Notes under the pieces: generated by a model
The model's database searches: none
The model's input: the letters and a program-made list of their open reading frames with translations, nothing else
What the model was told of the DNA's origin: nothing
Shown: positions 13,047 through 55,193 of the stretch, one piece after another
Position numbering within the stretch: the first letter of the stretch is position 1
Layout: each line of letters starts with the position of its first letter
Program-made: the position numbers and the translations under genes
Source of the DNA: a virus
Lineage: Duplodnaviria > Caudoviricetes
IMG/VR virus record: IMGVR_UViG_3300032291_003678
Location: 1-62,224 of that record
Strand: one strand, 5' to 3'
Length of the DNA stretch: 62,224 bases

Positions 13047-13047
13047 A

Positions 13048-13242: not shown

Positions 13243-13300
13243 AACTTTTATTGTTTTATTATTATACTTAAATATACGAAAACCTACTTTAAAACCCAAA

Positions 13301-13567: not shown

Positions 13568-13672
13568 AACTTACATACGGTTTATTTGCTCTTGTATTAA
13601 ACCATCTCTCCATTGTTGAATGTATATTTCTTCTTCTGAGAGTAAGGATTGTAATTCCTCTTCTGTCATAAC

Positions 13673-13897: not shown

Positions 13898-13964
13898 AAC
13901 TTATTTTTTCTTATACTTAAATATACGAAAAAAGGCTTGAAAAATCCAAGCCTATCTATACTTT

Positions 13965-14866: not shown

Positions 14867-14873
14867 TTTTAAT

Positions 14874-15182
14874 TTAATTTAAGGTTTCTAATAATTTTTT
14901 TACTTTAATACACATTTCATAATCTTCTACTTCCTCGAAGTATACTAATCCCATTTCTAAAGCAGGTTCCCATTCATCTTCATTAACTGTTAAAATAACT
15001 TCATCCATTTCTTCATCATCAGTTAAGGTAACAATAAATAGATCAACCATTGAGATTTTTTTACTTTTTTTCCAAAGATGATTTAGCATCTCATAAGTTT
15101 GAATATGAATAACCTCTGGGTGTGATTCAGTATATTCAATTAAAGCGTCTGTATCTTTTAATGTTAATTTTTTGGTTTTCAT
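14874..15182 (-). CDS. hypothetical protein with UVR-like C-terminus
   Basis: EDYEMCIKVKK motif. Confidence 0.65.
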   Translation of the reverse strand: MKTKKLTLKDTDALIEYTESHPEVIHIQTYEMLNHLWKKSKKISMVDLFIVTLTDDEEMDEVILTVNEDEWEPALEMGLVYFEEVEDYEMCIKVKKLLETLN

Positions 15183-15542
15183 TTATTTGGTTTTACGAGG
15201 TTTTCTTATTTTAGGTCGGTCTTCAGGATAGTGATTATAAAATATTTCACATAACTCCTTTTCTAAGGTTTCAATTGCTTCCTTATCTGCTTTAGTAATA
15301 CGAATTTTTCTTTCGTTTTTCTTAGGCTCATATTTGATTTTTAAAGCACTTAATTGTGCTTCTTTTTTATCAAATGTAGCCCATTCAGGAGATTTAATTT
15401 CAACTGATAATGGACCATTGGAGTGTTTGGTTTTATCCCAAATCCAAGTAAATGTTTCACCATTGTGATCCTTAAATTCTTGTGTGTATTGTAAAATAGG
15501 AGTATCGTTTTCTGCTATTCTACCTCGTCTTTCTACTTTCAT
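15183..15542 (-). CDS. hypothetical protein
   Basis: Promoter at 15546 immediately upstream. Confidence 0.65.
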   Translation of the reverse strand: MKVERRGRIAENDTPILQYTQEFKDHNGETFTWIWDKTKHSNGPLSVEIKSPEWATFDKKEAQLSALKIKYEPKKNERKIRITKADKEAIETLEKELCEIFYNHYPEDRPKIRKPRKTK

Positions 15543-15565
15543 AACCTTAATATACGAAAAAAATT

Positions 15566-15991
15566 TTACTTAGCCAAACTTTTTACTTCTTTTATATGCT
15601 TACATTCTCTGTCCTTAGCTCTCCATACTCCTGGACAATTACAAGTGTATTTGAATCCATTTCGTTTAGTAACATATTCTCCATCTCCACTTGATGATTT
15701 GAATTTCCAAGTATCAATTTCTTTTACTTGTTCTTGTTTTGATATTTTTTGTGTCCATTTTATATCACTCAATTCAGTATTTGGGTGACATGGTATCCAA
15801 CCGGGAACAATATATCTACCACTAAGTGTATTTACTATACTTGGTGGAATTAAAGATTCAATTTGGTATTTGTGTACTTGAACTATAGATGTTTTTACAT
15901 TGGGGTTATCTATAGTAATAGCAGTATTAGAATATACTGTATAATCTTCCATAAAACCACAATTCCAAGTATTTGAAACATTGTATAACAT
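15566..15991 (-). CDS. SWIM zinc-finger protein
   Basis: YTCNCPG...ECKHI (CxC...CxH). Confidence 0.8.
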   Translation of the reverse strand: MLYNVSNTWNCGFMEDYTVYSNTAITIDNPNVKTSIVQVHKYQIESLIPPSIVNTLSGRYIVPGWIPCHPNTELSDIKWTQKISKQEQVKEIDTWKFKSSSGDGEYVTKRNGFKYTCNCPGVWRAKDRECKHIKEVKSLAK

Positions 15992-16051
15992 AACCTTTCT
16001 TTTTTAAATTTATACTTAAATATACGAAAGAAATTTTAAATATCCAAATTT

Positions 16052-16732
16052 TTAGTCATTGTATGATATAAAATCATCATTTTTATCTTTATCATCGTTT
16101 TCGTCTAATAAATTCAATGATTTGAATTGCTCATACATTGCATCATCCATTTCCCATTTAACTTCTTGGATTTTAGGTATTTCATAAGTATCTTCTATAC
16201 CTTGTATTTGTTTAGGTGTAAATATGTCTCCAATAGTTAAATAATAACAATTGTAACATAAAAATTCTAAATTTTCTTGTTTCCAATCTCGTTTATTTCC
16301 ATTTTTAAAATTAACTAGTAATGGTACTCTATAATCAGATACACGTTGTTCCTTAAATCCACAACAAGTGCATTCTTCAGCTAATATAGCTTCTTGAATT
16401 AATCTACGTTTGAATTTATCTATACTAAAGGATTCGGTGTATAATTCTCCTGATAATATTTTTTGTAGGTCAGGATCTCTACCATGATGTTTTAAAAATT
16501 TAGGGATACCTTTACCCACTTGATTTTTATGAACATCAAATAGTGTTGGTGAGTTAAGATCGTTATCGTCTACTCTGAATGATTTGAAATATGGTTTAAT
16601 GTGTTGGTAGGAACAGTTTAAGTATCGAGCTGCTGCTCTAATACTTTTAGTAACCTTCATTGCACGTAACAAATCTTCTTTTGAGTATATTTTTGGTTTG
16701 GGACCCTTACGAAAATCATTTGGATGAGCCAT
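16052..16732 (-). CDS. HTH plus degenerate HNH-like zinc-binding protein
   Basis: SIRAAARYLNCSY HTH; CxxCG...NGNKRDWKQENLEFLCYNC. Confidence 0.65.
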   Translation of the reverse strand: MAHPNDFRKGPKPKIYSKEDLLRAMKVTKSIRAAARYLNCSYQHIKPYFKSFRVDDNDLNSPTLFDVHKNQVGKGIPKFLKHHGRDPDLQKILSGELYTESFSIDKFKRRLIQEAILAEECTCCGFKEQRVSDYRVPLLVNFKNGNKRDWKQENLEFLCYNCYYLTIGDIFTPKQIQGIEDTYEIPKIQEVKWEMDDAMYEQFKSLNLLDENDDKDKNDDFISYND

Positions 16733-37658: not shown

Positions 37659-38594
37659 TTATGAGAATGTAAAGAATTTATGTATTAATGGGTTTGCAGG
37701 TGGTAATGACCATTCTAAGTCATCATAAAAACCTTGTAATTTATTTTGTAATATAGTTTCAAAACTTTTACCTCTATCAATATATTCATTGATAAAATCT
37801 TTCATTTTTTGGGGTAAATCAAATTCTAAGAAAGCTATAGCTTCCATTTGATAAGGATTATCTTTTAAATAAACCCATTTGATTTTATCGCCTTGAACTA
37901 TTTGACTATGGTCTTTATCTAATTGCCAAAACCTTAATAAGTCATTATAGCAAGTAGCAGCTTTAACATTAGCACCTGCACCTTTTTTAAGTGTAGATAA
38001 TATTTTACCTGGTTTTGGAGTAGCCTCAACATAGTCATTTAATACTTTAACTGATGTTGGATTACCTATTAGAGTAAAATCAACATCAGGTGAAGTTGCT
38101 TCAGTTCTAAAATCATGAATTTTTTTATCTACAATACTTTGTGGAGTGCCTTTAATAATTAATTCAAGTATTTCTTGATAAAACTTACCAAAGTATTTTG
38201 GGAAATTAGCTTTTTTAAATTCTAATCCTTTAATATCAAGTTCTTCTTTTGATATACCCTCTTTTTTAGTAATCCATTGAGCATAACGTCTTGTAGCTCT
38301 AAAATAGGCAGAACGAATAACACACTCGGTTTTCATTTCTAATCGGTGTGTACTAATATTAAAGGCTTCTCTAGCGAGTGTGTTATAATGTTCTGTTATA
38401 ATGTCTTGATATTTGAGAGCTACTTTCTCTAATAAATCATCTTTTTCCTGGTCAGGTTTTTCATCAAAATCAGGATATAAATGTTTTAATAAAGGTTCAG
38501 CATTAAAGTAATTAGAGTCTGTATCCACATAGGCACAAAAATTAAAATCACCTTCATCACAAATCCACCATGGAGTATCTTCTAAATGCCTCAT
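37659..38594 (-). CDS. family B DNA polymerase, C-terminal subunit (motif C, thumb)
   Basis: YVDTDS, RRYA, IKGLE; likely start MRHLED; C-terminal clamp-binding-like IHKFF. Confidence 0.9.
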   Translation of the reverse strand: MRHLEDTPWWICDEGDFNFCAYVDTDSNYFNAEPLLKHLYPDFDEKPDQEKDDLLEKVALKYQDIITEHYNTLAREAFNISTHRLEMKTECVIRSAYFRATRRYAQWITKKEGISKEELDIKGLEFKKANFPKYFGKFYQEILELIIKGTPQSIVDKKIHDFRTEATSPDVDFTLIGNPTSVKVLNDYVEATPKPGKILSTLKKGAGANVKAATCYNDLLRFWQLDKDHSQIVQGDKIKWVYLKDNPYQMEAIAFLEFDLPQKMKDFINEYIDRGKSFETILQNKLQGFYDDLEWSLPPANPLIHKFFTFS

Positions 38595-38595
38595 A

Positions 38596-38859
38596 TTAAA
38601 ATGTTCTTTCTCCAGGTACTGGTGGTAAATTAACTGGTCTGTTACCTTTGGAGTCAATATCTGTTCTTTCTTTAATTGTTATTTCAAAAGAATTTCCATT
38701 AACTTTACATCTTCCTCCTTGTTGTAGCATTTTTTTAAAGAATTTTTCTTGCGATTCATTCCACTCTTGAGATAGAGCAATTACTTCAGCTTTATCGGCT
38801 TTCTCTCCATTTAAGGTAATACTTACTCCATTTCTAATTGATTGTCCTTTTAATGCCAT
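38596..38859 (-). CDS. small ORF inserted between the two PolB halves
   Basis: 87 aa; TAATG overlap with the PolB-N stop; its stop lies 1 nt before the PolB-C start. Confidence 0.75.
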   Translation of the reverse strand: MALKGQSIRNGVSITLNGEKADKAEVIALSQEWNESQEKFFKKMLQQGGRCKVNGNSFEITIKERTDIDSKGNRPVNLPPVPGERTF

Positions 38860-40589
38860 TATATCTCTAATTTAATTTCACCCCTAATTACTTTGTTCAT
38901 ATGTCTGTTTGCACAAAGTGCTGATTCTTGAATAATACGTTGACCACTTAATGTAATGGCTTCTGATAGAATTACATTTCCATATCTAAATGAAGGTAAT
39001 GCTGTAGCACCATAAAGTGAGTTAAGTAAGATTTTCATTGTGTATTGTAATAAATGATATTTTTCACCACCTATTGTATCACCTGCTTTATAAGCGGCTT
39101 TCATTTTATTTTTATATAAAACCCTTTCATCAAACCATTTATTCAAAATAGTAGATAATACTGACTCTTTATCTGTACGGAATATAACACCATTTGCTGA
39201 GATAGCCAAATTATATTGTTGAAGTAGTTTAGCTATTTTAGAAGAAGTCCAATCAATTTTATTGAATTTATCTTTATTAGTAAACCATTCAGTAGTGCGA
39301 GGTTTATCTTCAGTATCATTTATTAAGTCATTTAGGCCTAAGTGATTATTTCTATCATTAAAGTCTACAATTCTACCTACTAATGTTTCCTTACCAATGT
39401 TTAAGGACATAATAATTGAAGGGTATAGTGAAGTTAAATCCTCATCAAACATATAACGGTATAAACCTGCTTTAGGACAAAATAAATAACCACCTGCGTA
39501 ATTAGCCTTTTTAATAGGATTTCTATCACGTGAAGGTGGTACTATATCTTCTGATAGTAAAAACGCTGAAATAGCACCATCATGAATTTTAGATGATTGG
39601 TAAACATCATCATAATGGATTTTACCTTTGTGAGCTAGATTTTTAGTTAAACTGATGTAGTTAAATTTATGGTCTAAAGCTTTTAAAATTTCAACGTCTC
39701 TAAAGTTATATTCAATAAATTTATCCTTATCAGTTTCAAACAATCTGTCCAAACTACCTTCATATTCGATTTTAGATAATTTACAATACTTTTCCCCTAA
39801 TGCATCTAATTTATAAGAGGGTTCATCCGCAAATGAATATTTTTTATGTAAACGAATATAATCTAAAGAATACATCCCTTCAATTCTTATAGGTTGATCT
39901 TCATTATAAATTGTAATTCCAATATCGTTAGTAAATTTTTGTTCTTTAATTTTACCTATTGGAGATAAAACACTAGCTCTACGTTCACCTAATTGATTTA
40001 AAATTCTATAATAAAGATAAGGTATATCGAAATAATCACTATTATAACCAATTAAAATGTCAGGACTAACTTTAGTTAAATAATTTAACCATTTATTTAA
40101 TAGTTCTCTTTCGTTTGGTACAGGTATAATTTGTTTATTACCTATAGTGGTTTTTTCAATTTTATTCTCTTTGTCTAAAATTAGAATATACCATTTATCT
40201 TCTTGTTTATGCCACCAAGCAATTGATGTAACAGGTTTAGGTGCTTTTCTAATGTATTCAGGTGTAAGTGCACCACCCATTTCAATCTCGATATCGAAAA
40301 ATACTTCTTGGTGGGTAGTTGAAGGTTCATCATTTATGCCATATTTATCAATCAAAAACTTTTGATGAATAGGCATATCATGATAATGAATAAATGGATT
40401 ACTTCCTTCCCAGTATGTAGTTTTCTTTAGAGGTTCTCCGTTTAGACCAAAATGTGTAGCCTGGTTTTGGCTACACACTTCATAGGCATAATTTTGAAAT
40501 TCATATTGTTCTACTCCATCATCGGTCCATAAGGTAACATTGTATCTATTTTTACCTAATGATGTAGTTGTTATATTTTTATAACTCAT
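38859..40589 (-). CDS. family B DNA polymerase, N-terminal subunit (3'-5' exonuclease, motifs A and B)
   Basis: FFDIEI, GYNSDYFD, YNFRDV, DLTSLYPS, KILLNSLYG. Confidence 0.93.
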   Translation of the reverse strand: MSYKNITTTSLGKNRYNVTLWTDDGVEQYEFQNYAYEVCSQNQATHFGLNGEPLKKTTYWEGSNPFIHYHDMPIHQKFLIDKYGINDEPSTTHQEVFFDIEIEMGGALTPEYIRKAPKPVTSIAWWHKQEDKWYILILDKENKIEKTTIGNKQIIPVPNERELLNKWLNYLTKVSPDILIGYNSDYFDIPYLYYRILNQLGERRASVLSPIGKIKEQKFTNDIGITIYNEDQPIRIEGMYSLDYIRLHKKYSFADEPSYKLDALGEKYCKLSKIEYEGSLDRLFETDKDKFIEYNFRDVEILKALDHKFNYISLTKNLAHKGKIHYDDVYQSSKIHDGAISAFLLSEDIVPPSRDRNPIKKANYAGGYLFCPKAGLYRYMFDEDLTSLYPSIIMSLNIGKETLVGRIVDFNDRNNHLGLNDLINDTEDKPRTTEWFTNKDKFNKIDWTSSKIAKLLQQYNLAISANGVIFRTDKESVLSTILNKWFDERVLYKNKMKAAYKAGDTIGGEKYHLLQYTMKILLNSLYGATALPSFRYGNVILSEAITLSGQRIIQESALCANRHMNKVIRGEIKLEI

Positions 40590-46533: not shown

Positions 46534-47634
46534 TTAATTTGATAATGGTGCTTTAATTGCTGGATGTGATTGATAATCTATCAGTTTTAACAAACTATGG
46601 TCTAATTCATCAAATGGGACCTTAAACCCATCTATTCTTCTCATATCATCACATATCATTAGTTTTGGTAATGTAAAAGGTTCTCTTCCAATCTGCTCTT
46701 TAGCTTGTTCAATATGATTTGAGTATAAGTGAACATCACCTAAGTTACCAATCAACTCTTCAGGAACCATATTAACTTCTTTTGCTAGCATCTCTAGTAA
46801 TAATCCATAAGAAGCAATGTTAAATGGTAAACCTAAGAATGTATCTACTGAACGTTGATTCCACATTAAAGAGATTGCTCTGGTTGGTATGTTAGCTTCA
46901 TTAAGAATCTTTTCATATTTTTCTTTATCTTCTATCATAGTTGGCCAAATGTAATCTCCATCTAACATAGCATATTTTTTATCACCTAAAAAATTATTTC
47001 TTTCTCTTAAACTCAACTCTCTTGTATAAACTTGAAATCCATAATGACAAGGTGGAAGAACCATTTGGTCTAATTCTCCAACATTCCAAGCATTAACCAT
47101 TAATCGTCTTGAGTCTGGATTTGTTTTAAGGTCGTTGATTAGGTTTTGGATTTGGTCTATTTTATAGGTTGACATTCTCATTTCTGAATAATCAATACCT
47201 CTCCAATTTCTCCATTGCTTACCATAAATTGGACCTAAATCACCCCACTTCTTTGCAAATTCATCATCTGTTTTGATACGTTCGATGAATTCTTCTTTAG
47301 TTTTTGGTAAACCGATTGCAGGTAATAAATGTAGATTATTAGCAACTATTTGTTTTCTGTAATTTTCCCAACAATCACCATCCCAAATATGACAATTATT
47401 ATCAACCAAAAACTTAATGTTGGTATCACCTCGTAAGAACCAAAGAAGTTCTGTTACAATTGTTTTAAATGGCATCTTCTTTGTAGTAAGTAAAGGAAAA
47501 CCATCCTTCATATTGTGACGTATTTGTCTTCCGAATACTGAGATTGTTCCTGTACCTGTTCTGTCTTGTTTTGTTACTCCGTTGTCAAGAATGTCTTGAA
47601 GTAAGTCTGTGTATTGTTTATCTAATGAATTCAT
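46534..47634 (-). CDS. thyA: thymidylate synthase
   Basis: DRTGTGT, ELLWFLRG, GPIYGKQWR, LPPCH, QRSVDTFLGLPFN, HLYSNH. Confidence 0.97.
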   Translation of the reverse strand: MNSLDKQYTDLLQDILDNGVTKQDRTGTGTISVFGRQIRHNMKDGFPLLTTKKMPFKTIVTELLWFLRGDTNIKFLVDNNCHIWDGDCWENYRKQIVANNLHLLPAIGLPKTKEEFIERIKTDDEFAKKWGDLGPIYGKQWRNWRGIDYSEMRMSTYKIDQIQNLINDLKTNPDSRRLMVNAWNVGELDQMVLPPCHYGFQVYTRELSLRERNNFLGDKKYAMLDGDYIWPTMIEDKEKYEKILNEANIPTRAISLMWNQRSVDTFLGLPFNIASYGLLLEMLAKEVNMVPEELIGNLGDVHLYSNHIEQAKEQIGREPFTLPKLMICDDMRRIDGFKVPFDELDHSLLKLIDYQSHPAIKAPLSN

Positions 47635-48464: not shown

Positions 48465-48698
48465 TTAATTTTTATCAGGTTTAGTAAATAAATGTACTAC
48501 TATTCCTGCAAATAGTATTGGTAATATTGTTATAGAAAAAATATGTCCCATACTACATTCCCACCAATCATTAAATCGTGTGTGATGTATGCACCCAAAT
48601 AAGGAGTGCCCAACAGTGTATATAAACCATCCAAACATTGCTGAGATGTAGATTAGTATTATATACTTAATAAATTCTAAACTTGCTTTTTTATCCAT
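48465..48698 (-). CDS. small membrane protein
   Basis: 2 TM segments. Confidence 0.6.
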   Translation of the reverse strand: MDKKASLEFIKYIILIYISAMFGWFIYTVGHSLFGCIHHTRFNDWWECSMGHIFSITILPILFAGIVVHLFTKPDKN

Positions 48699-48709
48699 AA
48701 CTTTTATTT

Positions 48710-49006
48710 TTAGTCTTTAAATATTGCTATTAGTAAAAGGGCAAACATTGTTATTACTAAGAAAATAGTAACTGTTCCTAAAACTCCACTATCATTACTA
48801 ACTTTCTTTACTACAGTATTATCTTTTGTAGATAAGATGTAAACAGTATTATCTTTTTCAACTACCTTATAAGTGATTGAATCGATACTTGCTAGTTGTT
48901 GTAATTCAACTGTTGTTTCTTGTTTTGGATTTTCTACCTTGATAGGTTTGTTGTTGCAGGAGATCATTGTTGCTCCTAATACTAACATACTAACTAATTT
49001 TTTCAT
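48710..49006 (-). CDS. putative lipoprotein with C-terminal TM
   Basis: MKK..hydrophobic..MISC lipobox; promoter at 49034. Confidence 0.65.
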   Translation of the reverse strand: MKKLVSMLVLGATMISCNNKPIKVENPKQETTVELQQLASIDSITYKVVEKDNTVYILSTKDNTVVKKVSNDSGVLGTVTIFLVITMFALLLIAIFKD

Positions 49007-49069
49007 AACTTTTATTTTTTAAATTTCTTATACTTAAATATACGAAAAGCATTTTAATAAAGCAAACTT

Positions 49070-49873
49070 TTAGATAGGTAATTTTACTTTACTTAATAAA
49101 TTATTTGAAACATGTGTATAAATCTCAGTAGTTTTTGAACTTGAATGACCTGCTATTTTCTGAATTATTCTCAGATCTGTTCCTGATTCTAATAAGTTAG
49201 TAAACGAGGAATGTCTTAGTGTATGTATAGAGGAACTAGAATCTATATATTTTTTATATATTTTCTGGCAACTGCCAGTGGAGTATTGTGTTGAATTTTG
49301 GCCATTGAATAGAAACTCTTTTGGTATATATTGTTTGTAATAATTACGTAACAGTATTAGCACATTCTCAGATAAAGGCACTATTCTATCTTTTCTACCT
49401 TTTGCGTTTCTAATATGGATTAACATCCTCTTTGAGTCAATATCTTCAATTTTTAGATTTACAACCTCAGATACCCTTAATCCTACTGAGTAAGTTAGTG
49501 TTAGGATTGTTTTATGTTTTAAATTATCAATCTTAGATAGTTGACTCTTTATAAAATCTCCATCAATAACTCTTGGGAGTTTCTTTTCAGATTTGGGTCT
49601 CTTAAATGAGACTTTACCGTATTTTTTCCCCAGCACTTCTTTGTATAAGAATCTAATAGAGTTTATGACTTGATTCTGCTGGGAGATGGATGTAAAATTG
49701 TAGCTATCTAGATACTTTTGAAAATCGGAAGAATTACAATGTATTATCTGTTTATCACCTAAACTTTCTAAAAATGGTACTATATGTGATAGGTAGTTAT
49801 TTTTTGTTCTAGGAGAGTAGTTTAGGTATATAAACTTTTCTTCGCAAATCTTTATAATTTTTTGATTTTTCAT
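49070..49873 (-). CDS. IntI-like tyrosine recombinase, short form without the integron-specific insertion
   Basis: N-terminal YSPRTKNNY and SQQNQVINSIRFLYKEVL, RPK..KKLPRV; catalytic GLRVSE, KGRKDR, HTLRHS, AGHSS, TEIYTHV all intact. Confidence 0.92.
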   Translation of the reverse strand: MKNQKIIKICEEKFIYLNYSPRTKNNYLSHIVPFLESLGDKQIIHCNSSDFQKYLDSYNFTSISQQNQVINSIRFLYKEVLGKKYGKVSFKRPKSEKKLPRVIDGDFIKSQLSKIDNLKHKTILTLTYSVGLRVSEVVNLKIEDIDSKRMLIHIRNAKGRKDRIVPLSENVLILLRNYYKQYIPKEFLFNGQNSTQYSTGSCQKIYKKYIDSSSSIHTLRHSSFTNLLESGTDLRIIQKIAGHSSSKTTEIYTHVSNNLLSKVKLPI

Positions 49874-49932
49874 GTTATAGATACTTAATAATTAACAGTC
49901 TATAAAAAGTTACATATATATTATAGTTATAA
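49874..49932 (+). other. candidate attI-like primary recombination site, crossover G|TTATAAA at 49926
   Basis: First GTT core upstream of the integrase start, not preceded by a hairpin arm; short IR TTATAGA...TCTATAA in the spacer. Confidence 0.5.
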
Positions 49933-49947
49933 AACATTAAAACGATT

Positions 49948-50080
49948 TTATAACATCAAATATAAGAAATTTGGGGGCGGAGGAAACAATCGGTATTTTA
50001 AAGACTCCCACAAGCCGATTTCTTTAATTTAGTGGCACGTTGGCGAACCCCAAACTTCTCATATTTGCGTTACGTTATAC
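49948..50080 (+). repeat. attC-like site 1 (133 bp)
   Basis: TTATAAC-AT-CAAATATAAGAAATTTGGGG...CCCCAAACTTCTCATATTTG-CGTTAC-GTTATAC. Confidence 0.85.
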
Positions 50081-50085
50081 AACAT

Positions 50086-50388
50086 TTACTTGAACCAATA
50101 ATAAATTTCCTTTCTTTTATTATTTTCTATTATATAAATGGTAATTTTTCTATCTACAATTTCCAATGAATTAAATTTAAAGTTATTATTTACTACATAA
50201 CCAGTATCTTTATCAATTATAATTAATGATAATTTATTATTTAAATCACCTTCATAATGTGTATCTTTAACAAATAAAATATATTCTGATGGTTGAAATT
50301 CATTTTCATCATCAGTATAATTTTCCATATCTAATATGGTTTTATTAAATAATAAATCGGTTATTTCGTAACTATCTTTTGTTTTCAT
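50086..50388 (-). CDS. cassette 2 ORF, hypothetical
   Basis: Likely start MKTKDS; cassette bounded by GTTATACAAC / GTTGTATAAC. Confidence 0.75.
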   Translation of the reverse strand: MKTKDSYEITDLLFNKTILDMENYTDDENEFQPSEYILFVKDTHYEGDLNNKLSLIIIDKDTGYVVNNNFKFNSLEIVDRKITIYIIENNKRKEIYYWFK

Positions 50389-50400
50389 AAATAAAACGTT

Positions 50401-50492
50401 GTATAACAAGGTATATGTGAAATACCTATAAAATTTATATTAAAATTTAAAGTTCTCTGGTAAGGTACTTCACATATACCCAACCGTTATCG
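50401..50492 (+). repeat. attC-like site 2 (92 bp)
   Basis: GTATAAC-AA-GGTATATGTGAAATACC...GGTACTTCACATATACC-CAACC-GTTATCG. Confidence 0.88.
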
Positions 50493-50741
50493 GTAATTCT
50501 TTTTGGATTTACTATTCGGACATTTTTTATTATGACACAACATTTCACCAAATATTCCAAGAAATCCGTTTCTTGATACTGTTGAGCCGCAATTGGTACA
50601 AAAATGTCCTACGCCTTCTCGTAATACTCTACTTAGTGGGGGTTTTGGTATAGAACTACCGATAACATCAGATATATTCAATTGTTTTTCGTATTCTTGA
50701 ACTATCTGCTTTGCTTTTAAGTAATCTTCTTTTTCTATCAT
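50487..50741 (-). CDS. cassette 3 ORF, zinc-ribbon protein starting inside attC3
   Basis: CTNCG...CHNKKC; stop codon is the TTA of the GTTA core. Confidence 0.75.
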   Translation of the reverse strand: MIEKEDYLKAKQIVQEYEKQLNISDVIGSSIPKPPLSRVLREGVGHFCTNCGSTVSRNGFLGIFGEMLCHNKKCPNSKSKKNYR

Positions 50742-50791
50742 TTGTATTTTAATTTATGTTAAACAACTGAATATATCTGTAACCGTTATAA
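50660..50791 (+). repeat. attC-like site 3 (132 bp)
   Basis: CGATAAC-AT-CAGATATATTCAATTGTTT...AAACAACTGAATATATCTG-TAACC-GTTATAA. Confidence 0.88.
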
Positions 50792-50792
50792 G

Positions 50793-51020
50793 CTATGTTA
50801 GCTCAACTGCATCTAAAAGCATAATTATTTTAAATACCTTAAATCCATCATCTCGCCAAGTACCTTTAAACCTTTCTTTTATCATTCTTACTTCGCTTTC
50901 AGAATACTGTTCGGCAAATTCTACCTCTCCAATATCTGTAAAGTAGTCTAGTTTTTTTCCATCAAACTCATTTCTATTCACGTATTCTCCAAATCTATTT
51001 TTAATTACATATCTTTCCAT
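50793..51020 (-). CDS. cassette 4 ORF, hypothetical
   Basis: Likely start MERYVI; bounded by GTTATAAGCT / AGCTTATAAC. Confidence 0.72.
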   Translation of the reverse strand: MERYVIKNRFGEYVNRNEFDGKKLDYFTDIGEVEFAEQYSESEVRMIKERFKGTWRDDGFKVFKIIMLLDAVELT

Positions 51021-51031
51021 AAAAACACAGC

Positions 51032-51167
51032 TTATAACAACTGCTATATTCAATAGCGGTCATTAGGTTTAATTTAATTATTGTTTTGTACTTGTTATTT
51101 TCGGTCATCAACCGAAGCATTGTTTTGTGTTTTTCCGCTACTGAAATATAGCAGTGAACCGTTATAA
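51032..51167 (+). repeat. attC-like site 4 (136 bp)
   Basis: TTATAAC-A-ACTGCTATATTCAATAGCGG...CCGCTACTGAAATATAGCAGT-GAACC-GTTATAA. Confidence 0.88.
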
Positions 51168-51173
51168 GCCATT

Positions 51174-51350
51174 TTAAGACACCGCACCGATTATAGATTC
51201 AATTCGTTTAATAATGTCCAACGTATTATTATATGTGTGGGCTTTTACTGTATGATTGTAATCAGATAAGTTACCTCTATTCATTGCCTCTGAACGTTCT
51301 TCATTTTCTTTTTTTAGTTTTCTAACTAAATCTTTTAATTCGTTTATCAT
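51174..51350 (-). CDS. cassette 5 ORF, 58 aa (MINELKDLVRKLKKENEERS...), below ORF-track cutoff
   Basis: Translated by hand; fills the cassette bounded by GTTATAAGCC / GGCTTATAAC. Confidence 0.7.
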   Translation of the reverse strand: MINELKDLVRKLKKENEERSEAMNRGNLSDYNHTVKAHTYNNTLDIIKRIESIIGAVS

Positions 51351-51379
51351 TTTAAGTAAGATTTTTGAATAAAAACGGC

Positions 51380-51511
51380 TTATAACAGCATATTGCCAAA
51401 AGTGGCAGTTGTGTGGTTATATGAACATTTTTGCTTCGATTATACATTTGTTTTAAATTCAAGTTTAGTGCTTCGTATTCGCCTCCTTCGGCAATCTGCA
51501 AACCGTTATCA
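51380..51511 (+). repeat. attC-like site 5 (132 bp)
   Basis: TTATAAC-A-GCATATTGCCAAAAGTGGC...GCCTCCTTCGGCAATCTGC-AAACC-GTTATCA. Confidence 0.85.
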
Positions 51512-51517
51512 CCAATA

Positions 51518-51742
51518 CTACCTTAGTGCTTCTAATTCAGATTTTACTTCACTCCAAACTGTTATAGCAGATGGTGTTTCATCATCATAAGTATCCCAAT
51601 ATATGCGTGTTGGATTTTCTTCCAAAATCTTATCCACAATTAGTAATGCTACTTCAATACATTCTTCATAATGTAATGGTGCTTTGAAACTTATTTCTTT
51701 CAATAATGTTTCAGCTTTAAGTTTTACTTCTTCTTTTGTCAT
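51518..51742 (-). CDS. cassette 6 ORF, hypothetical phage protein
   Basis: ALLIVDKIL...WSEVKSEL. Confidence 0.75.
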   Translation of the reverse strand: MTKEEVKLKAETLLKEISFKAPLHYEECIEVALLIVDKILEENPTRIYWDTYDDETPSAITVWSEVKSELEALR

Positions 51743-51776
51743 TTTAATTAAATTTATCGTTAATAATCCGTACTGG

Positions 51777-51871
51777 TGCTAACAGCGTATATATAAGATA
51801 CGCCTACAAGCATTTGTTTATAATTTAATATTTTCGTTAAGGCGTACCTCTCATATACGCAACCGTTAGCA
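51777..51871 (+). repeat. attC-like site 6 (95 bp)
   Basis: TGCTAAC-A-GCGTATATATAAGATACGCCT...AGGCGTACCTCTCATATACGC-AACC-GTTAGCA. Confidence 0.87.
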
Positions 51872-51877
51872 ACAAGG

Positions 51878-52153
51878 CTAAGAAAGCTCCGTGCGAAGTT
51901 TCTCAAAGTATTTAATTGCTTTCTCGATACTCTCTTTGTCTCGTTTGATATTAAAGAAAATATTGGTTTCTGAACCGCTTGCAGTTCGAATAGTTCGCTG
52001 TGTATTTGGTTCGATATATTGAAACATTACGTTTATAAAATCGCTTGTAATGTCTTCTTTTTCACCAATCCACATTCCTTTTTCTTGGTTCTGTTTACCT
52101 AAGTAAATCTTTTCTGTTAGTGGCGAATAGCCAATTCCTTTTTTGATACTCAT
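51878..52153 (-). CDS. cassette 7 ORF, hypothetical phage protein
   Basis: GYSPLTEKIYLG...W.GEKEDIT; bounded by GTTAGCAAC / GTTGCTAAC. Confidence 0.78.
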   Translation of the reverse strand: MSIKKGIGYSPLTEKIYLGKQNQEKGMWIGEKEDITSDFINVMFQYIEPNTQRTIRTASGSETNIFFNIKRDKESIEKAIKYFEKLRTELS

Positions 52154-52198
52154 TTTATTTTAGTTATTAAGTTAAAAATCAATTTAATAAAGCCCAGT

Positions 52199-52290
52199 TG
52201 CTAACACCGTGTATAAGCAATGGCACACAAGCGGTGTAGGTAATTTGAAAGTGTGTATAAGTGCCACTGCTCATACACGAAACGTTAGCG
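52199..52290 (+). repeat. attC-like site 7 (92 bp)
   Basis: TGCTAAC-AC-CGTGTATAAGCAATGGCAC...GTGCCACTGCTCATACACG-AAAC-GTTAGCG. Confidence 0.88.
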
Positions 52291-52296
52291 GTCAGG

Positions 52297-52641
52297 CTAA
52301 GAACACACAACCTTATCAAGAACCTTTGTAAAATGAGTTCTTAAATCTTCAAGGTGCTTTTCGGTCGCTGACAACTTACCCTGCAACAAGTTTTCGTTTT
52401 CGTTCTTAATCCCAACACGACTATTATAGTCGCCAACAGCCTTTAGAAAATCATTAGCAAAATGCCTATTCATTTCTAATAACGGTATTAAAGGTTCTGC
52501 CGCTGCGTTCATTGGGTCAAGAGTTTGCTCAATTAGTAATCCGTCTTTTTGACCGATAATAGCAATCCTATTGCCTTGCTGTGTTTTTAGATACATTCTA
52601 ACAGTCATTGACTGATAATCTTCTTGAAATATAAATTCCAT
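52297..52641 (-). CDS. cassette 8 ORF, hypothetical
   Basis: GKLSATEKHLEDLR; bounded by GTTAGCGGT / ACCGCTAAC. Confidence 0.78.
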   Translation of the reverse strand: MEFIFQEDYQSMTVRMYLKTQQGNRIAIIGQKDGLLIEQTLDPMNAAAEPLIPLLEMNRHFANDFLKAVGDYNSRVGIKNENENLLQGKLSATEKHLEDLRTHFTKVLDKVVCS

Positions 52642-52688
52642 TTTGTTGTTATTAAACTTTGGACTTCTAAAAGCGGAGAAGCCCGAAC

Positions 52689-52818
52689 CGCTAACACTTG
52701 CTTTGCAAAATGGCGGGTGAAGTGCTAATTTGAACCCTTGTGCCTTGAATAAACTTTAGTGCTTAACGAACATTTGTGCCTTGAAAACCGCCACTTCGCA
52801 AAGCAGATGCCGTTATAG
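52689..52818 (+). repeat. attC-like site 8 (130 bp)
   Basis: CGCTAAC-ACT-TGCTTTGCAAAATGGCGG...CCGCCACTTCGCAAAGCA-GATGCC-GTTATAG. Confidence 0.88.
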
Positions 52819-52831
52819 GTAATAAAATTTA

Positions 52832-52999
52832 CTACCCTTTGTTTTTAAATTGTTTTATATATCTATCACCAACTTCGTTCCAAAGTCGTCTTGCTTGTTC
52901 GTAATCACCGACACTTATTTCTGCTTCAAATATCACTTCAAAGTGTTCTTCTGTACACTCCTTTGCAACTTCTTTTTTTATTTCATCTATTGTTTTCAT
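52832..52999 (-). CDS. cassette 9 ORF, 55 aa (MKTIDEIKKEVAKEC...), below ORF-track cutoff
   Basis: Translated by hand; bounded by GTTATAGGTA / TACCTATAAC. Confidence 0.7.
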   Translation of the reverse strand: MKTIDEIKKEVAKECTEEHFEVIFEAEISVGDYEQARRLWNEVGDRYIKQFKNKG

Positions 53000-53019
53000 A
53001 ATTCGTAAATTTTACATAC

Positions 53020-53116
53020 CTATAACAAAGTGTATAAGTAATGTGGCTTAATTAATTTTGTTCTTTGATTAAATGTGTGAGTAAAGCCACACTACTCATA
53101 CACTCAACCGTTATAA
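53020..53116 (+). repeat. attC-like site 9 (97 bp)
   Basis: CTATAAC-AA-AGTGTATAAGTAATGTGGCTT...AAGCCACACTACTCATACACT-CAACC-GTTATAA. Confidence 0.88.
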
Positions 53117-53120
53117 GAAA

Positions 53121-53402
53121 TTATTTTTCCAATTTTTTATAATTCTTTGCATATAAGTATATCCCTAACCATATCCAAATTCCTGTTAATATACCAGTTA
53201 GTCTAACAAAAATTGGAAACTCAAAAGAAAAAATTAATGAGATATGTGTGATTATTACACCTAAGTGTAATCCTAATAAAAATAATGGTATTATAATGAA
53301 CCACAGTACAAATTTTTCTTTTGTTAAATAACTACTTATAACAACAGATATACCCAATTCGGGTCTCCGTATTTCATTTAAGTTTTCTACGTTTTTATTC
53401 AT
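53121..53402 (-). CDS. cassette 10 ORF, 2-TM membrane protein starting inside attC10
   Basis: Two hydrophobic helices; N-terminus encoded by the attC loop and arm. Confidence 0.7.
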   Translation of the reverse strand: MNKNVENLNEIRRPELGISVVISSYLTKEKFVLWFIIIPLFLLGLHLGVIITHISLIFSFEFPIFVRLTGILTGIWIWLGIYLYAKNYKKLEK

Positions 53403-53465
53403 TTTATCTTTTATTTAAGTTATTACTATTTAATCCCGAACTTGGTATATCTGCAACCGTTATGT
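53336..53465 (+). repeat. attC-like site 10 (130 bp)
   Basis: TTATAAC-AA-CAGATATACCCAATTCGGG...CCCGAACTTGGTATATCTG-CAACC-GTTATGT. Confidence 0.88.
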
Positions 53466-53496
53466 GAGATTGTTACGATTCGTTTTCAAAAGAAAT

Positions 53497-53667
53497 TTAG
53501 TCAATAAGAATTATTTCACTCACTTTGACGAAAAGAAATACTTTATCGTTTTGGTCGCTAAATATTTGAAAATCGGCACACCCTTTTATTATATTCTGCT
53601 TAAGAATTTCAGCCGTTTCTTGTAATATTTCTTTTTTTGTTCCGTTTTTAAAATGAATTGTCATCAT
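53497..53667 (-). CDS. cassette 11 ORF, 56 aa (MMTIHFKNGTKKEI...), below ORF-track cutoff
   Basis: Translated by hand; bounded by GTTATGTGAG / CTCACATAAC. Confidence 0.7.
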   Translation of the reverse strand: MMTIHFKNGTKKEILQETAEILKQNIIKGCADFQIFSDQNDKVFLFVKVSEIILID

Positions 53668-53696
53668 AATGTTTTGTTTTAAAAACCCACAACCTC

Positions 53697-53829
53697 ACAT
53701 AACAAGTGTTTGGCAAAAAAGCGGGTTTGGTTATTAATTTAATGTTTGTTTTTTATTTGTATGTTTTAGGCTTAATCGAAGTTTTAGGCTTGTTTTTCCG
53801 CTTCTTCGCCAAGCACCGTAACGTTAGCG
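53697..53829 (+). repeat. attC-like site 11 (133 bp)
   Basis: ACATAAC-AA-GTGTTTGGCAAAAAAGCGG...CCGCTTCTTCGCCAAGCAC-CGTAAC-GTTAGCG. Confidence 0.86.
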
Positions 53830-53830
53830 G

Positions 53831-54043
53831 TCATTTTTTAGAAACGATGTCGTTACCCCATTCATCCTCTTTTAAATCGCCTGTATATTCTGTAACTTGA
53901 TAACTAACTTTCATTTTTACAATAAACCCAGCTTTACAACATTCAGAAGCTATTAATTTTGAGCCACCAACAGAATAAGTTTCTAAATTTCTATAAACAA
54001 CATTTGGTATTTTTAATTCCTTTTTACAATTTGGACATTCCAT
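53831..54043 (-). CDS. cassette 12 ORF, zinc-finger-like
   Basis: CPNC...ECC. Confidence 0.75.
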   Translation of the reverse strand: MECPNCKKELKIPNVVYRNLETYSVGGSKLIASECCKAGFIVKMKVSYQVTEYTGDLKEDEWGNDIVSKK

Positions 54044-54055
54044 AATTAAAACGAG

Positions 54056-54189
54056 TTATAACAGCAATTACACGCTATTGCTAGATTAGGTTTAATTCAA
54101 TGTTCAGTTATAGTCTTTCAATTCCTTGTTAAACTGAAAGATTGTTTTGTCCTTTTACTCAACAGACGTGTAGTTGCGTAACGTTAGCA
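54056..54189 (+). repeat. attC-like site 12 (134 bp)
   Basis: TTATAAC-A-GCAATTACACGCTATTG...CAACAGACGTGTAGTTGC-GTAAC-GTTAGCA. Confidence 0.83.
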
Positions 54190-54213
54190 CCAATACTACT
54201 TAGTTTTCTAATA

Positions 54214-54252
54214 CTTAAATATACGAAGAAAAGCTTACCTAAGCAAGCTTTT
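54214..54252 (-). promoter_or_regulatory. phage promoter with fused upstream terminator, firing into the cassette array
   Basis: CTTAAATATACGAA followed by hairpin AAAAGCTTACCTAAGCAAGCTTTT; no ORF between it and attC12. Confidence 0.8.
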
Positions 54253-54258
54253 TCTTAT

Positions 54259-54678
54259 TTATTTTACAATAATTTTATATCCTGTATCAATACTTTCAAA
54301 TCGTTCTACAATCATTTGTTCAAACTCCTCACCATACCTACCCATATTATCTCCACAACAAATGTAAGGACCACCAGAAGGATCTACCATATTAATATTA
54401 TCTTTATTTGATGTAACTAAATTTAGGTATTTTACATGAGGGTATTCTCTTTTATCCTCATCGTACTCGTGTACAGCTTTTTTAAAATGATCTAAAGACA
54501 TTCTTTCTCCATTGTAAAAGTTTTCTATATGATCTTTACAATATTTGTCGTATGCTTTAAGATAATCATTAGGATAACCAATTCTACAGAAATTAAAATT
54601 CCCTTCCCATAAAATATTTTTATCACTATCTAGTGTGAAAGTGAATTGATCACCGTATCTGTTTTTGTATGTGTTCAT
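54259..54678 (-). CDS. hypothetical phage protein (KNRYGD...VDPSGGPYI)
   Basis: 139-aa ORF. Confidence 0.75.
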   Translation of the reverse strand: MNTYKNRYGDQFTFTLDSDKNILWEGNFNFCRIGYPNDYLKAYDKYCKDHIENFYNGERMSLDHFKKAVHEYDEDKREYPHVKYLNLVTSNKDNINMVDPSGGPYICCGDNMGRYGEEFEQMIVERFESIDTGYKIIVK

Positions 54679-54797
54679 TTCTTTTCTTTTATAATTTCTA
54701 TTAATTATTTGATATCCCTAATATAGCACCTATTAATAACACTCCTGCTGCCATACCATAGAAAAAAGCAACAGTTAAATCATATCTATCATAGTTA

Positions 54798-55193
54798 TTA
54801 CTTTCCATTATTTCTGTTTTTTACAATTTCTATTAGTTTCTTAAGACATTCAAGTTCCGCTTCTTCGTAGGTTTTAAAATTACTACCATAAGATTTACCA
54901 AAATTGTCATTTTCAGTTTGTATAAAACCTCCCCAGAAAATACCTAAATCTTTTTGCTTTTTTAAAGGTAAAGAAAATTCAATATTTGAATACTTTTCTC
55001 TAAACCATCTAAATGCTTGTTGGTATAGTGGTGCATCACACTCAATAGTAAAATTATCTGCTTCAATATCTGTATCTAAATGTAAGTATGGTTCTCCACC
55101 ATCCCATTGTCTATATGTTGCAATACAAGGTTCATCAAATCCTAATTCTTTTAAAGCTAATGCTTCTGCGTAAGGTATAAATTCTTTTTCCAT
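54798..55193 (-). CDS. hypothetical phage protein (ALKELGFDEPC...APLYQQAFRWFREK...TYEEAE)
   Basis: 131-aa ORF. Confidence 0.75.
   Translation of the reverse strand: MEKEFIPYAEALALKELGFDEPCIATYRQWDGGEPYLHLDTDIEADNFTIECDAPLYQQAFRWFREKYSNIEFSLPLKKQKDLGIFWGGFIQTENDNFGKSYGSNFKTYEEAELECLKKLIEIVKNRNNGK

Follow-up and report, generated by a model that had tools for sequence, protein, structure and literature searches.

The window, meaning the whole 62,224-nt stretch of viral DNA analysed here, is a fragment of a viral genome estimated to be 41% complete. The host element is a large freshwater Flavobacterium-type phage, with synteny to Flavobacterium myophages of the immuto group that involves GroEL, DNA polymerase, and thymidylate synthase; the 28-kb immuto region around the matching genes showed no annotated recombinase and no sites matching our model R1. 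On its minus strand (49873 to 49070), the window encodes, as an earlier note on this DNA had proposed, an intact tyrosine recombinase; it is 267 aa long and Xer/IntI-like. Next to the gene lies an attI-like site, followed by 12 hairpin sites of the attC-like form TAAC-arm-loop-arm-AACC-GTTA (Table 1). These delimit twelve cassettes, each running from the TTA of one GTTA up to the G of the next and holding a compact antisense ORF (none in the first) and then a hairpin site. The 12 palindromes claimed earlier were all found, each TAAC start no more than 3 nt from its previous listing, and no such site was present elsewhere in the 62-kb contig. One ORF for every site interval had also been claimed; 11 ORFs lie between the 12 sites, but the count of twelve cassettes is right, because the attI-like GTTA opens the ORF-less cassette 1. 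A phage-wide intergenic motif, which may act as a promoter, occurs 27 times in the window (0.69 expected) in one orientation throughout, and two copies bracket the array and the recombinase gene as one unit.

Table 1 Features of the cassette array and its borders, in window positions. Loci named L are other arrays or phage loci used for comparison.
Feature	Positions	Strand	Description
Intergenic motif copy	49032..49046	-	just beyond the 3' end of the recombinase gene
attI-like simple site	49912..49929	+	AT-alternating tract and GTTA (49926-49929); cassette 1 starts here
Cassette 1	49927-50074		ORF-less; opened by the attI-like GTTA (49926), closed by site 1
Site 1	49951..50077	+	127 nt, attC-like hairpin; R1 91.8 bits; closes cassette 1
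Cassette 2 ORF	50086..50388	-	100 aa from ATG, no family
Site 2	50404..50489	+	86 nt, short class; sequence family in at least 7 other phage arrays
Cassette 3 ORF	50487..50741	-	84 aa, Cys-rich motifs; first ~33 codons within site 3
Site 3	50663..50788	+	126 nt; 90.6% identical to L007
Cassette 4 ORF	50793..51020	-	75 aa, no family
Site 4	51035..51164	+	130 nt
Cassette 5 ORF	51174..51350	-	58 aa, no family over cut-off
Site 5	51383..51508	+	126 nt; 71% identity over 128 nt to a site of bacterial array L116
Cassette 6 ORF	51518..51742	-	74 aa, no family
Site 6	51780..51868	+	89 nt, short class; matches sites of L004, L005, and L027 at 92-93% identity
Cassette 7 ORF	51878..52153	-	91 aa, DUF7446 / phrog_1578
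Site 7	52202..52287	+	86 nt, short class
Cassette 8 ORF	52297..52641	-	114 aa, phrog_30489
Site 8	52692..52815	+	124 nt
Cassette 9 ORF	52832..52999	-	55 aa
Site 9	53023..53113	+	91 nt, short class
Cassette 10 ORF	53121..53402	-	93 aa, hydrophobic; first ~20 codons within site 10
Site 10	53339..53462	+	124 nt; R1 111 bits
Cassette 11 ORF	53497..53667	-	56 aa (outside the family-library scan)
Site 11	53700..53826	+	127 nt
Cassette 12 ORF	53831..54043	-	70 aa, CxxC motifs
Site 12	54059..54186	+	128 nt; distal array end
Intergenic motif copy	54213..54227	-	promoter-like on the minus strand; just upstream of the array in the gene sense

The recombinase matched PF00589 (E = 5e-34) and, at its N-terminus, the SAM-like domain PF13495 (E = 2.2e-10). 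The "IntI-type N-terminus" described earlier thus corresponds to a real SAM-like domain that is not specific to IntI, since Xer proteins share it. Scores against the NCBIfam integron integrase models fell under their cut-offs, both for NF040815 (171 bits, cut-off 220) and for TIGR02249 (154.7 bits in two stretches, cut-off 265). The stretches carrying the catalytic motifs aligned position by position with those of XerA and VchIntIA. The alignment to VchIntIA contained a gap (34 aa versus 82 aa), and profile positions 179-254, the IntI-specific region, were skipped. As Cury 2016 and Smyshlyaev 2021 describe, canonical integrases need this region for attC recognition. By the accepted criterion, the sequence of the phage recombinase does not qualify it as an IntI, since it is without the insert that canonical integron integrases carry, and the phage platform lacks one of the features that define canonical integrons.

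A gapless scan for TAAC/arm/arm/GTTA over all 62,224 bases recovered 8 of the 12 sites with zero matches outside them, and the same scan returned 0-2 matches in each of 20 Markov simulations. Arm pairing reached 81.2% of cells, compared with 58.1 ± 2.1% in 500 shuffles (none as high), and dropped to 31-41% with slid partners. Within the window array, 18 of 20 arm pairs had changed on both sides, indicating that structure rather than sequence is conserved there. The claim that the arms are not repeats of one another holds inside this array; across other phages, each site type is a conserved sequence family. Shared site sequences neighbour unrelated ORFs in different phages, for which simple joint travel of ORF and site is not a sufficient explanation. 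Of 279 phage sites, 264 had an A opposite C at position 15 after TAAC, as did 39 of 41 bacterial ones; this conserved A·C/G·T mismatch is the hallmark of the sites. Arm alignments were gap-free in 207 of the 279; about a quarter contain an indel, leaving room for bulged bases.

Searching IMG/VR for relatives of the recombinase gave 224, from which 80 loci were retained. The recombinases of these loci are 63-88% identical to that of the window; among the 120 protein clusters listed, identity was at least 82% and length always 266-268 aa. Model R1 gave 321 matches (E ≤ 0.01) in the 80 loci. All 300 matches listed lay on the strand opposite the recombinase gene, and 297 of them were upstream of it, which is also the arrangement in the window. 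Of the non-duplicate loci, 57 had 1 kb or more of upstream sequence, and 48 of these carried at least two upstream sites in this geometry. Loci devoid of R1 matches still showed cassette chains of 2-6 steps in five of eight cases when the flank rule described below was applied, whereas 57 of 58 loci had no step at all in a shuffled-flank control.

The flank rule concerns the six bases after the GTTA of one site and the six before the TAAC of the next. For the 11 neighbouring pairs of the window, complementary matches numbered 6, 6, 6, 6, 5, 5, 5, 6, 5, 6, and 2, while the two flanks of the same site gave 4, 1, 2, 5, 3, 5, 2, 3, 4, 2, 1, and 2 for sites 1-12. The earlier statement that a cassette's start usually complements its own end better than the other end of its palindrome was thereby borne out by computation, except in the last pair (sites 11 and 12; 2/6). 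Separately, the right flank of site 12 and the left flank of site 6 are exactly complementary in sequence. Across the viral loci, 138 of 189 neighbouring pairs matched at five or more of six positions (88 perfectly), against 14/249 for own-site flanks, 7/151 when one site was skipped, and 261/5000 for random pairs; the 51 exceptions were mostly more than 800 nt apart, where a site has probably been overlooked. Pairing extends further: position 7 after GTTA was A in 145 of 145 pairs, opposite C in 112, and positions 8-11 matched fully in 78 of the 145.

The attI-like site conforms to a consensus, TATATATnATA-GTTA, found in 71 of 72 loci; it lies upstream of the recombinase start codon (ATG) at a distance of 32-73 nt (~50 nt). 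Information content is ~2 bits throughout the AT tract and GTTA and drops to ~0-0.4 bits directly past GTTA. One might take the enzyme for a lysogeny integrase or an Xer-type multimer resolvase, this site for its attP or dif-like target, and the array for an unrelated hypervariable region. XerA, XerC, and XerD models are indeed among the best family scores, source records name the homologues "site-specific recombinase XerD", and distant relatives (32-39% identity) in Cellulophaga and Polaribacter phages are annotated as integrases. Each locus, however, has a different sequence adjoining the attI-like site, and in 48 of 53 loci the flank of this site pairs with the one to the left of the first detected hairpin (5/6 in the window); both are expected of a cassette insertion point and not of an attP or resolution site. 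Together with the arrays beside the recombinase gene in 48/57 loci, this makes the proposal extremely unlikely, although the enzyme may have a side function as a resolvase.

Cassettes differed between relatives. Their median size in phages was 372 bp, and the ORF ran antisense to the site in 171 of 175. Among 216 inter-site modules, five pairs were shared between different, divergent arrays; in all five, homology began at the GTTA of site k-1 or no more than ~80 nt before it, and in four it continued across the ORF and reached the GTTA of site k, the fifth ending 16 nt short. L027 and L067 have one cassette in common at 100% identity over 315 bp, compared with 71.6% (nt) and 60.7% (aa) identity between their recombinase genes. 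The 11 cassette ORFs of the window did not recur in the 80 related loci except for site-encoded parts, so mobility of the window's own cassettes is putative. The sole match of the cassette 3 ORF was its site-encoded part, in L007. Homologues of the cassette 7 ORF (L165, L166) had no R1 sites within 1.5 kb, and the homologue of the cassette 8 ORF in L167 (75% identical) was an ordinary gene with no TAAC/GTTA flanks. Ten of the 11 ORFs were scanned against family libraries, giving one Pfam family at or over cut-off (DUF7446) and three PHROGs matches.

Homologous sites also occur in Bacteroidota chromosomes, where they adjoin recombinases that are likewise without the insert. Identity to bacterial sites amounts to 71-82% for some of the phage sites, and Qi et al. 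(2023; PMC9892861) report bacterial integron fragments in phages, so the element has precedent. The block could on these grounds be a piece of a host chromosomal array, passively carried or misassembled, and not an active system adapted to the phage. We regard this as very unlikely. The phage recombinases form a group of their own, the best bacterial matches having 41-51% identity (one partial match, 67%). Phage sites lie upstream and on the opposite strand of the recombinase gene, whereas those of Bacteroidota lie downstream on the same strand; ORFs antisense to the site make up 171/175 in phages and 5/32 in bacterial arrays, and phage cassettes are much smaller. The unit is, moreover, bracketed by copies of the phage's own intergenic motif. 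Unitigs of the probable source run had equal depth over backbone and array (17.3, 16.8, and 18.5), a comparison that is not independent evidence and, like any based on assembled contigs, cannot reveal circles or rare variants.

The same bacterial arrays bear on a reading of the hairpins as sense-strand RNA elements beside an unrelated recombinase, for instance elements that terminate transcription, stabilise mRNA, or are processed by RNase between small early genes. The hairpins sit between co-directional ORFs whose ATG lies ~14-16 nt from the site, a promoter-like motif precedes the array, and mismatches are G·U-compatible mostly on the transcribed minus strand (655 bottom-strand versus 178 top-strand wobbles), as would also be expected of an RNA hairpin. 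In bacterial arrays, however, 27 of 32 ORFs lie on the other strand while the wobble polarity relative to GTTA is unchanged, so the asymmetry follows recombination polarity and not transcription. RNA elements would also leave unexplained the flank complementarity across the ORF, the attI-like junction ending at GTTA, the GTTA-bordered cassettes common to divergent arrays, and the fact that the sites, in both geometries, almost always accompany a single recombinase family; a search of Rfam found no family matching the sites. An RNA role is thus highly improbable as the main explanation, and a secondary one is possible.

We consider the locus, with a probability of about 80%, to be an integron-like cassette platform that resides in the phage and belongs to a non-canonical class. 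Its recombinase would be catalytically active, cleaving at or within GTTA. Strand exchange between two hairpin sites would excise a cassette as a circle, which could be inserted through recombination of its site with the attI-like site or with another hairpin site. The substrate would be the folded bottom strand (minus strand of the window), forming on the circle a first stem from GTTA and ~11 flanking positions and a second from the arms; G·T wobbles, each at a set distance from the crossover, would mark this strand, the top strand having A·C mismatches there. The ORFs, which as cargo may have functions such as the anti-defence role suggested earlier, point toward the recombinase gene and would be transcribed from the promoter-like motif beyond site 12, each site serving as leader of the ORF behind it. 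The analysis supports the earlier proposal that the phage encodes a gene-capture platform of integron-like type, its cassettes being inserted at G|TT, and the architecture recurs in dozens of independent viral contigs from other uncultured phages. In its build the phage platform resembles a bacterial integron, but its enzyme is simpler and its genes are reversed.

The earlier note had read the recombinase and its cassettes as an integron-like gene-capture system carried by a phage. The system proved real, with signals far beyond chance, but it departs from a classical integron in two defining traits, namely the IntI-specific region of the integrase and sense-oriented cassettes read from a proximal promoter.

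All 12 palindromes described in that note were found in place (see table). The sites measure 86-130 nt, begin with an invariant TAACA and end with an invariant CGTTA, and have a short left spacer and a longer, mostly AACC-like right spacer; a simple pattern scan of the contig found such sites confined to the array. Structure was conserved over sequence, as had been claimed: the arms pair in 81% of cells compared to 58% in shuffled sequences and 31-41% when partners were slid out of register, and 18 of 20 arm pairs had changed on both sides. These are the traits of canonical attC sites, that is, imperfect palindromes of variable length with AAC/GTT boxes and a structure better preserved than the sequence.

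One arm position is always non-standard, with a left A opposite a right C in all 12 window sites. At position 15, 264 of 279 phage sites and 39 of 41 bacterial sites have an A.C pair on the top strand (G.T on the bottom strand), and mismatches giving G.T on the bottom strand outnumbered the reverse by 655 to 178 in 261 phage sites. Arm alignments were gap-free in 207 of 279 sites, and no conserved bulge was observed, in contrast to the extrahelical bottom-strand bases by which canonical attC sites set the choice of strand. In the outer stem, position 7 is A in all 145 pairs and faces C in 112 of them; the next four bases all match in 78. Because the polarity of this wobble asymmetry relative to GTTA is kept in bacterial arrays despite their opposite transcription, it marks a DNA strand and not an RNA. 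A known RNA family was rejected as the identity of the hairpins: an Rfam scan of positions 48500-55000 at E ≤ 1 returned two chance microRNA matches, far under their gathering scores, with no credible match and none to an attC family. The loops of the long sites 8 and 11 contain short internal direct repeats, and similar loop motifs are present in a bacterial site of locus L156; these repeats could be putative binding sites for accessory factors.

Coordinates of features in the window
Feature	Coordinates	Strand	Remark
Recombinase gene	49873->49070	-	267 aa
attI-like site	49912-49929		AT tract followed by GTTA
First cassette	49927-50074		No ORF
Hairpin sites 1-12	49951-54186		First site start to last site end
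Loop of site 8	about 52730-52790		Short internal direct repeats
Loop of site 11	about 53760-53800		Short internal direct repeats
Conserved module (~35 nt)	51509-51545		
Conserved module (~35 nt)	54187-54212		Past the last site
15-base motif (examples)	2370, 5097, 13266, 49032, 54213, 55900, 61221		All in one orientation
Family-A DNA polymerase, first ORF	37659-38657	-	
Family-A DNA polymerase, second ORF	38859-40589	-	
Thymidylate synthase	46534-47634	-	366 aa

The complementarity claimed between the two ends of a single cassette was likewise upheld across loci. Among 189 neighbour pairs, the hexamer that follows one site's GTTA and the hexamer ahead of the next site's TAAC are complementary in 138 (perfectly so in 88), compared to 14 of 249 for the two flanks of a single site and 261 of 5000 for random pairs. 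Along the 11 neighbour pairs of the window, the matches (of six) were 6, 6, 6, 6, 5, 5, 5, 6, 5, 6, and 2. Complementarity across an ORF is useful only where the two ends meet, as they would in a circle.

When the 216 inter-site modules were compared, five were common to different arrays, and their homology begins at, or up to ~80 nt before, the GTTA of the left-hand site. In four of them it spans the ORF and the whole right-hand site and ends 1-2 nt past the GTTA of that site, in agreement with the G|TT borders proposed earlier; in the fifth, shared by loci L076 and L017, it ends 16 nt short, within the right arm. The left-hand site was never taken whole in place of the right-hand one. The viral loci L027 and L067 share 315 bp at 100% identity between unrelated neighbours, and their recombinase genes are 71.6% identical. 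From the borders of the five shared modules, the mobile unit is TTA-flank-ORF-flank-TAAC-hairpin-G with crossover at the right-hand GTTA, the cleaved bond being located to within a few bases around that GTTA. This corresponds to a canonical cassette, a mobile ORF plus site with a G|TT crossover and a start that complements the inner box. ORF starts inside sites 3 and 10 had been considered as proof of the crossover place and were set aside, the borders of the shared cassettes being better evidence.

When the window's cassette ORFs were compared by tblastn with the 80 related loci, the only homology lay in the 31-33 residues encoded within sites 3 and 10. In the assembled contigs of four sequencing runs, pieces span single sites or cassettes, and the joints are short-sided or lie between look-alike sites; one run contains the stretch and is its probable source, and the others hold 5-12% of its words.

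An attI-like site adjoins the recombinase gene, where canonical integrons have the primary site at which cassettes enter. The sequence TATATATnATA-GTTA lies 32-73 nt upstream of the recombinase start, most often 52 nt (71 of 72 loci aligned on the start). Information content stays near 2 bits through GTTA and is near zero directly past it, where sequences are unrelated between loci; in 48 of 53 loci, the hexamer following this GTTA is complementary to the left flank of the first hairpin detected. At the sequence level, the junction has the pattern expected of an attI followed by differing first cassettes. The window's first cassette has no ORF, and similar minimal cassettes open the arrays of viral loci L050, L027, and L006. 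In many cassettes, GTTA and its six flank bases are directly followed by a conserved module of ~35 nt, located at the ORF's 3' end; it occurs in the window and, after the attI-like GTTA, in loci L009, L010, L017, L043, and L046. One window copy lies past the last site, as if it were a leftover cassette start.

IMG/VR holds 224 relatives of the recombinase, of which 80 loci were kept, with proteins 63-88% identical to that of the window and many on contigs of 100-360 kb. R1, a covariance model derived from the 12 window sites along lines suggested by the earlier note, returned 321 matches in these 80 loci. Among the 300 matches listed, 297 were upstream of the recombinase and all 300 were on the opposite strand, as in the window; the three that were not upstream belong to one locus. 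Of the 57 non-duplicate loci whose upstream sequence was long enough, 48 have at least two sites, and one locus has 15. These counts come from the larger search, since a smaller batch loses matches, such as three sites of L008. Eight loci had no R1 match, and five of them still gave cassette chains via 48-nt minimal sites, a third site class (~48 nt) that lies upstream of the recombinase in L022, L023, L032, L033, and L055 and is missed by R1; low-scoring 60-nt R1 matches are probably the same minimal class. Chain walking took no step in 57 of 58 loci once the flanks were shuffled; the procedure counts too low, as two adjacent GTTA in site 1 halt it after a single step in the window, and was used for the loci lacking R1 matches and for this control only. 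For 17 of 74 non-duplicate loci, the contig extends less than 1 kb upstream of the gene, which fits, without proving, assembly breaks in a variable, repeat-bearing region.

Metagenomes abound in close homologues of the recombinase, which carry no label there but 'XerD'. Among isolated phages (50,697 genome records), no recombinase at least 60% identical to that of the window was found. Locus L082, on a contig from a bin labelled Gammaproteobacteria, encodes a recombinase 50% identical to the window protein and has a site (at positions 247-377 of the locus) upstream of it on the opposite strand, which is the phage geometry; this site is 92% identical to one of viral locus L017, and the L082 contig may belong to a phage and have been misbinned with bacteria.

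The recombinase is a simple two-domain protein, with an N-terminal SAM-like domain and a catalytic tyrosine-recombinase domain, and the stretches holding the catalytic motifs align with their residues conserved. Its best single profile, and the top NCBIfam match, is the XerA-type NF040815 (171.3 bits, cut-off 220), followed by the integron integrase profile TIGR02249 (154.7 bits, cut-off 265), whose match is split into two stretches. The XerC and XerD profiles TIGR02224 and TIGR02225 scored 138.4 and 136.6 bits, respectively, against cut-offs of 335 and 330, so that the protein falls under the cut-offs of XerA, XerC, and XerD alike. Alignment with Pyrococcus XerA, whose structure is solved, runs in one piece; alignment with the Vibrio integrase VchIntIA (2a3v) breaks into two, with 34 query residues facing 82 IntI residues in the gap. 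Positions 179-254 of the integron profile are skipped as well, and from these two observations the IntI-defining region near patch III (intI_Cterm) is absent from the phage enzyme, as judged by TIGR02249 and the VchIntIA alignment. This region has been reported to be essential for integron function (Cury 2016; Smyshlyaev 2021), and the window recombinase differs from the integrase by which canonical integrons are recognized (Cury et al. 2016).

Among bacterial proteins, the top matches, most of them from Bacteroidota, reach 41-51% identity with the recombinase. Among five bacterial relatives scanned, three pass NF040815 ('site-specific tyrosine recombinase/integron integrase'; 222.1, 240.6, and 226.7 bits) and two remain under its cut-off (217.5 and 183.8); none passes the IntI model, with which four align in two stretches. 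Bacterial R1 sites lie downstream of the recombinase gene and on its strand, seven of them in Flavobacterium saccharophilum. In these arrays, 27 of 32 cassettes have ORFs sense to the site, ORFs reach ~500 aa, and 25 of 32 pairs show flanks matching at five or more of six bases. Full-length identity between certain phage and bacterial sites is 71-82%, and the phage sites share ancestry with the chromosomal arrays of Bacteroidota. The chromosomal arrays beside NF040815-type genes (L156, L086, L116, L120, L161, L139, and others, from Bacteroidota and a few other chromosomes) have the same site family and an insert-less recombinase; in contrast to the phage array, which is opposite on each count, they are placed downstream on the same strand with sense and larger ORFs.

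Sites of the same family, ~80-85 nt long, also occur downstream of a related recombinase in L139, a Desulfitobacterium (Firmicutes) chromosome (10417-16335 of that locus), so the bacterial version reaches beyond Bacteroidota. In the accessible text of the IntegronFinder 2.0 preprint, Bacteroidetes appear with In0 elements and one Salinibacter integron only. In the openly searchable literature, we found no description of arrays with insert-less integrases in Bacteroidota. Integron censuses may miss such arrays, since an insert-less recombinase is scored as no integrase by the IntI criterion.

In 171 of 175 phage cassettes, and likewise in all 11 ORF-bearing cassettes of the window, the longest ORF runs antisense to site polarity; the median phage cassette measures 372 bp. 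It follows from this orientation that, read in the sense of the gene, the site precedes the ORF, with the ATG ~14-16 nt after it, and the crossover falls just past the stop codon. Canonical integrons differ in having ORFs sense to attC that are expressed from a promoter, Pc, at the intI/attI end. A 15-base motif occurs 27 times in the window (two mismatches or fewer) against 0.69 expected, in one orientation throughout and ~20-26 nt before start codons of minus-strand genes. The motif probably serves as a promoter or leader element of the phage itself. Copies at 54213 and 49032 bracket the array and recombinase, and we infer that the former is a promoter feeding the array from its far end.

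The 184 cassette ORFs (median 89 aa) fall into 156 clusters, of which 141 are singletons. Pfam analysis of 148 of them identified nine families with one member each, including an MT-A70 methyltransferase, ADP-ribosyltransferase domains, an exoribonuclease, and YopX. Of 10 of the 11 window ORFs scanned (all except 53497-53667), one gave a Pfam match at or above the cut-off, DUF7446, and three matched PHROGs of unknown function, one of them weakly. A counter-defence role for this cargo, which the earlier note had proposed, is a guess. Homologues of two window cassette ORFs (51-75% amino acid identity) are ordinary genes in the viral contigs L165, L166, and L167, where no R1 sites were found within 1.5 kb; the L167 homologue, which overlaps the gene upstream of it, lacks TAAC/GTTA flanks. 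These cases hint at how cassettes are recruited, and they bear on cassette origin, not on the system itself.

The window record is viral and linear, with an estimated completeness of 41%, and its larger genes include GroEL, a family-A DNA polymerase, a thymidylate synthase, and sugar-modifying enzymes. All genes in the array part lie on the minus strand. The flanks of the array are ~81% identical in nucleotide sequence to Flavobacterium myophages of the immuto group, and when a 14-kb region was compared with isolated phages, immuto and elemo matched in the flanking genes only. Around the matching genes of immuto, a 28-kb region has no annotated recombinase and no hairpin sites. The family-A DNA polymerase of the window is divided into two ORFs ~200 nt apart, compared to a single gene in immuto; an intron, an intein-free split, or a frameshift are possible causes. 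The thymidylate synthase spans only positions 29-307 of a 335-position profile with its 366 aa and for this reason appears to carry an internal insertion.

Set beside known systems, the phage array resembles classical integrons (IntI/attI/attC; classes 1-5 and sedentary chromosomal). Both have a tyrosine recombinase, a simple primary site, and a cassette array; both have an imperfect palindrome (AAC...GTT) at the cassette end and a cassette start complementing the inner end of the same cassette; and in both, structure is conserved more than sequence within an array and the cargo is mostly ORFans. In the class 1 integron, site polarity reads away from the 5' end of the recombinase, as it does here. 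The phage enzyme, however, scores below IntI cut-offs and is without the IntI-specific region, its sites have conserved A.C/G.T positions in place of a conserved bulged-base pair, its antisense ORFs require transcription to enter from the far end, and its small cassettes are carried by a large phage. On sequence grounds, the element would work like an integron, with predicted recombination and putative single-stranded substrates.

Xer systems (XerA/XerC/XerD) and the pdif modules of Acinetobacter plasmids, small gene modules bounded by recombination sites (PMC7399989), are alike in their simple two-domain recombinase and site-bounded modules. The phage sites, by contrast, are covarying hairpins of 48-130 nt with flank complementarity spanning the module, and the repeats found in the window included no dif-like 28-bp duplex site. 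PeSL modules in the hyperplastic regions of T4-type phages consist of ORFans between stem-loops and regulatory signals, thought to be shuffled as modules by homologous recombination without a dedicated recombinase. They resemble the array as small ORFan genes bracketed by stem-loops in a variable phage region; in contrast to them, the array is linked to a tyrosine recombinase and has an attI-like site and borders that lie exactly at GTTA.

Integron parts in phages have a precedent. According to the accessible text of Qi et al. 2023 (PMC9892861), IntegronFinder and HattCI detected canonical elements in 21 of 10,705 phage genomes, namely three complete integrons plus one In0, all in genomes of temperate phages (one P1-type, one an inactive prophage), and 17 integrase-less clusters of at least two predicted attC each, which were the only kind found in virulent phages. 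Five of six phage attC sites tested recombined with IntI1, and cassette movement by phages was proposed. Their small clusters of attC-type sites in temperate and virulent phages, including a Polaribacter phage, parallel ours; that text, however, contains no phage-specific integrase lineage, attI, or long arrays. In MW202573, an uncultured myovirus of that study, no R1 sites were found, and its 59-feature table has no annotated recombinase. The openly searchable literature yielded no phage integrase lineage with arrays.

Taken together, we give roughly even odds (about 0.5) to the following reading. A separate and old class of integron, with an insert-less integrase and attC sites carrying fixed G.T wobbles, has gone unnoticed in the chromosomes of Bacteroidota and was the source of a phage-autonomous lineage; within this lineage, co-infecting large freshwater phages would actively exchange minute, self-led ORFan cassettes, which would be candidates for genes of counter-defence or host takeover.

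Integrons count as devices of bacteria, and to our knowledge phages have been known to hold stray integron parts but not to own the machinery. The recombinase lineage occurs in at least 224 viral contigs and is tied to long cassette arrays; together with its common metagenome homologues, this suggests that these phages may run a gene-capture system of their own. Several questions can now be tested: how folded sites are recognized and a strand chosen without an IntI-specific domain, for which the fixed G.T positions are mutational targets; where cassettes originate, given that two window ORFs occur elsewhere as ordinary phage genes; and what the very diverse cargo does. If this reading is true, the array would be a gene-capture device belonging to a virus and not to a cell.
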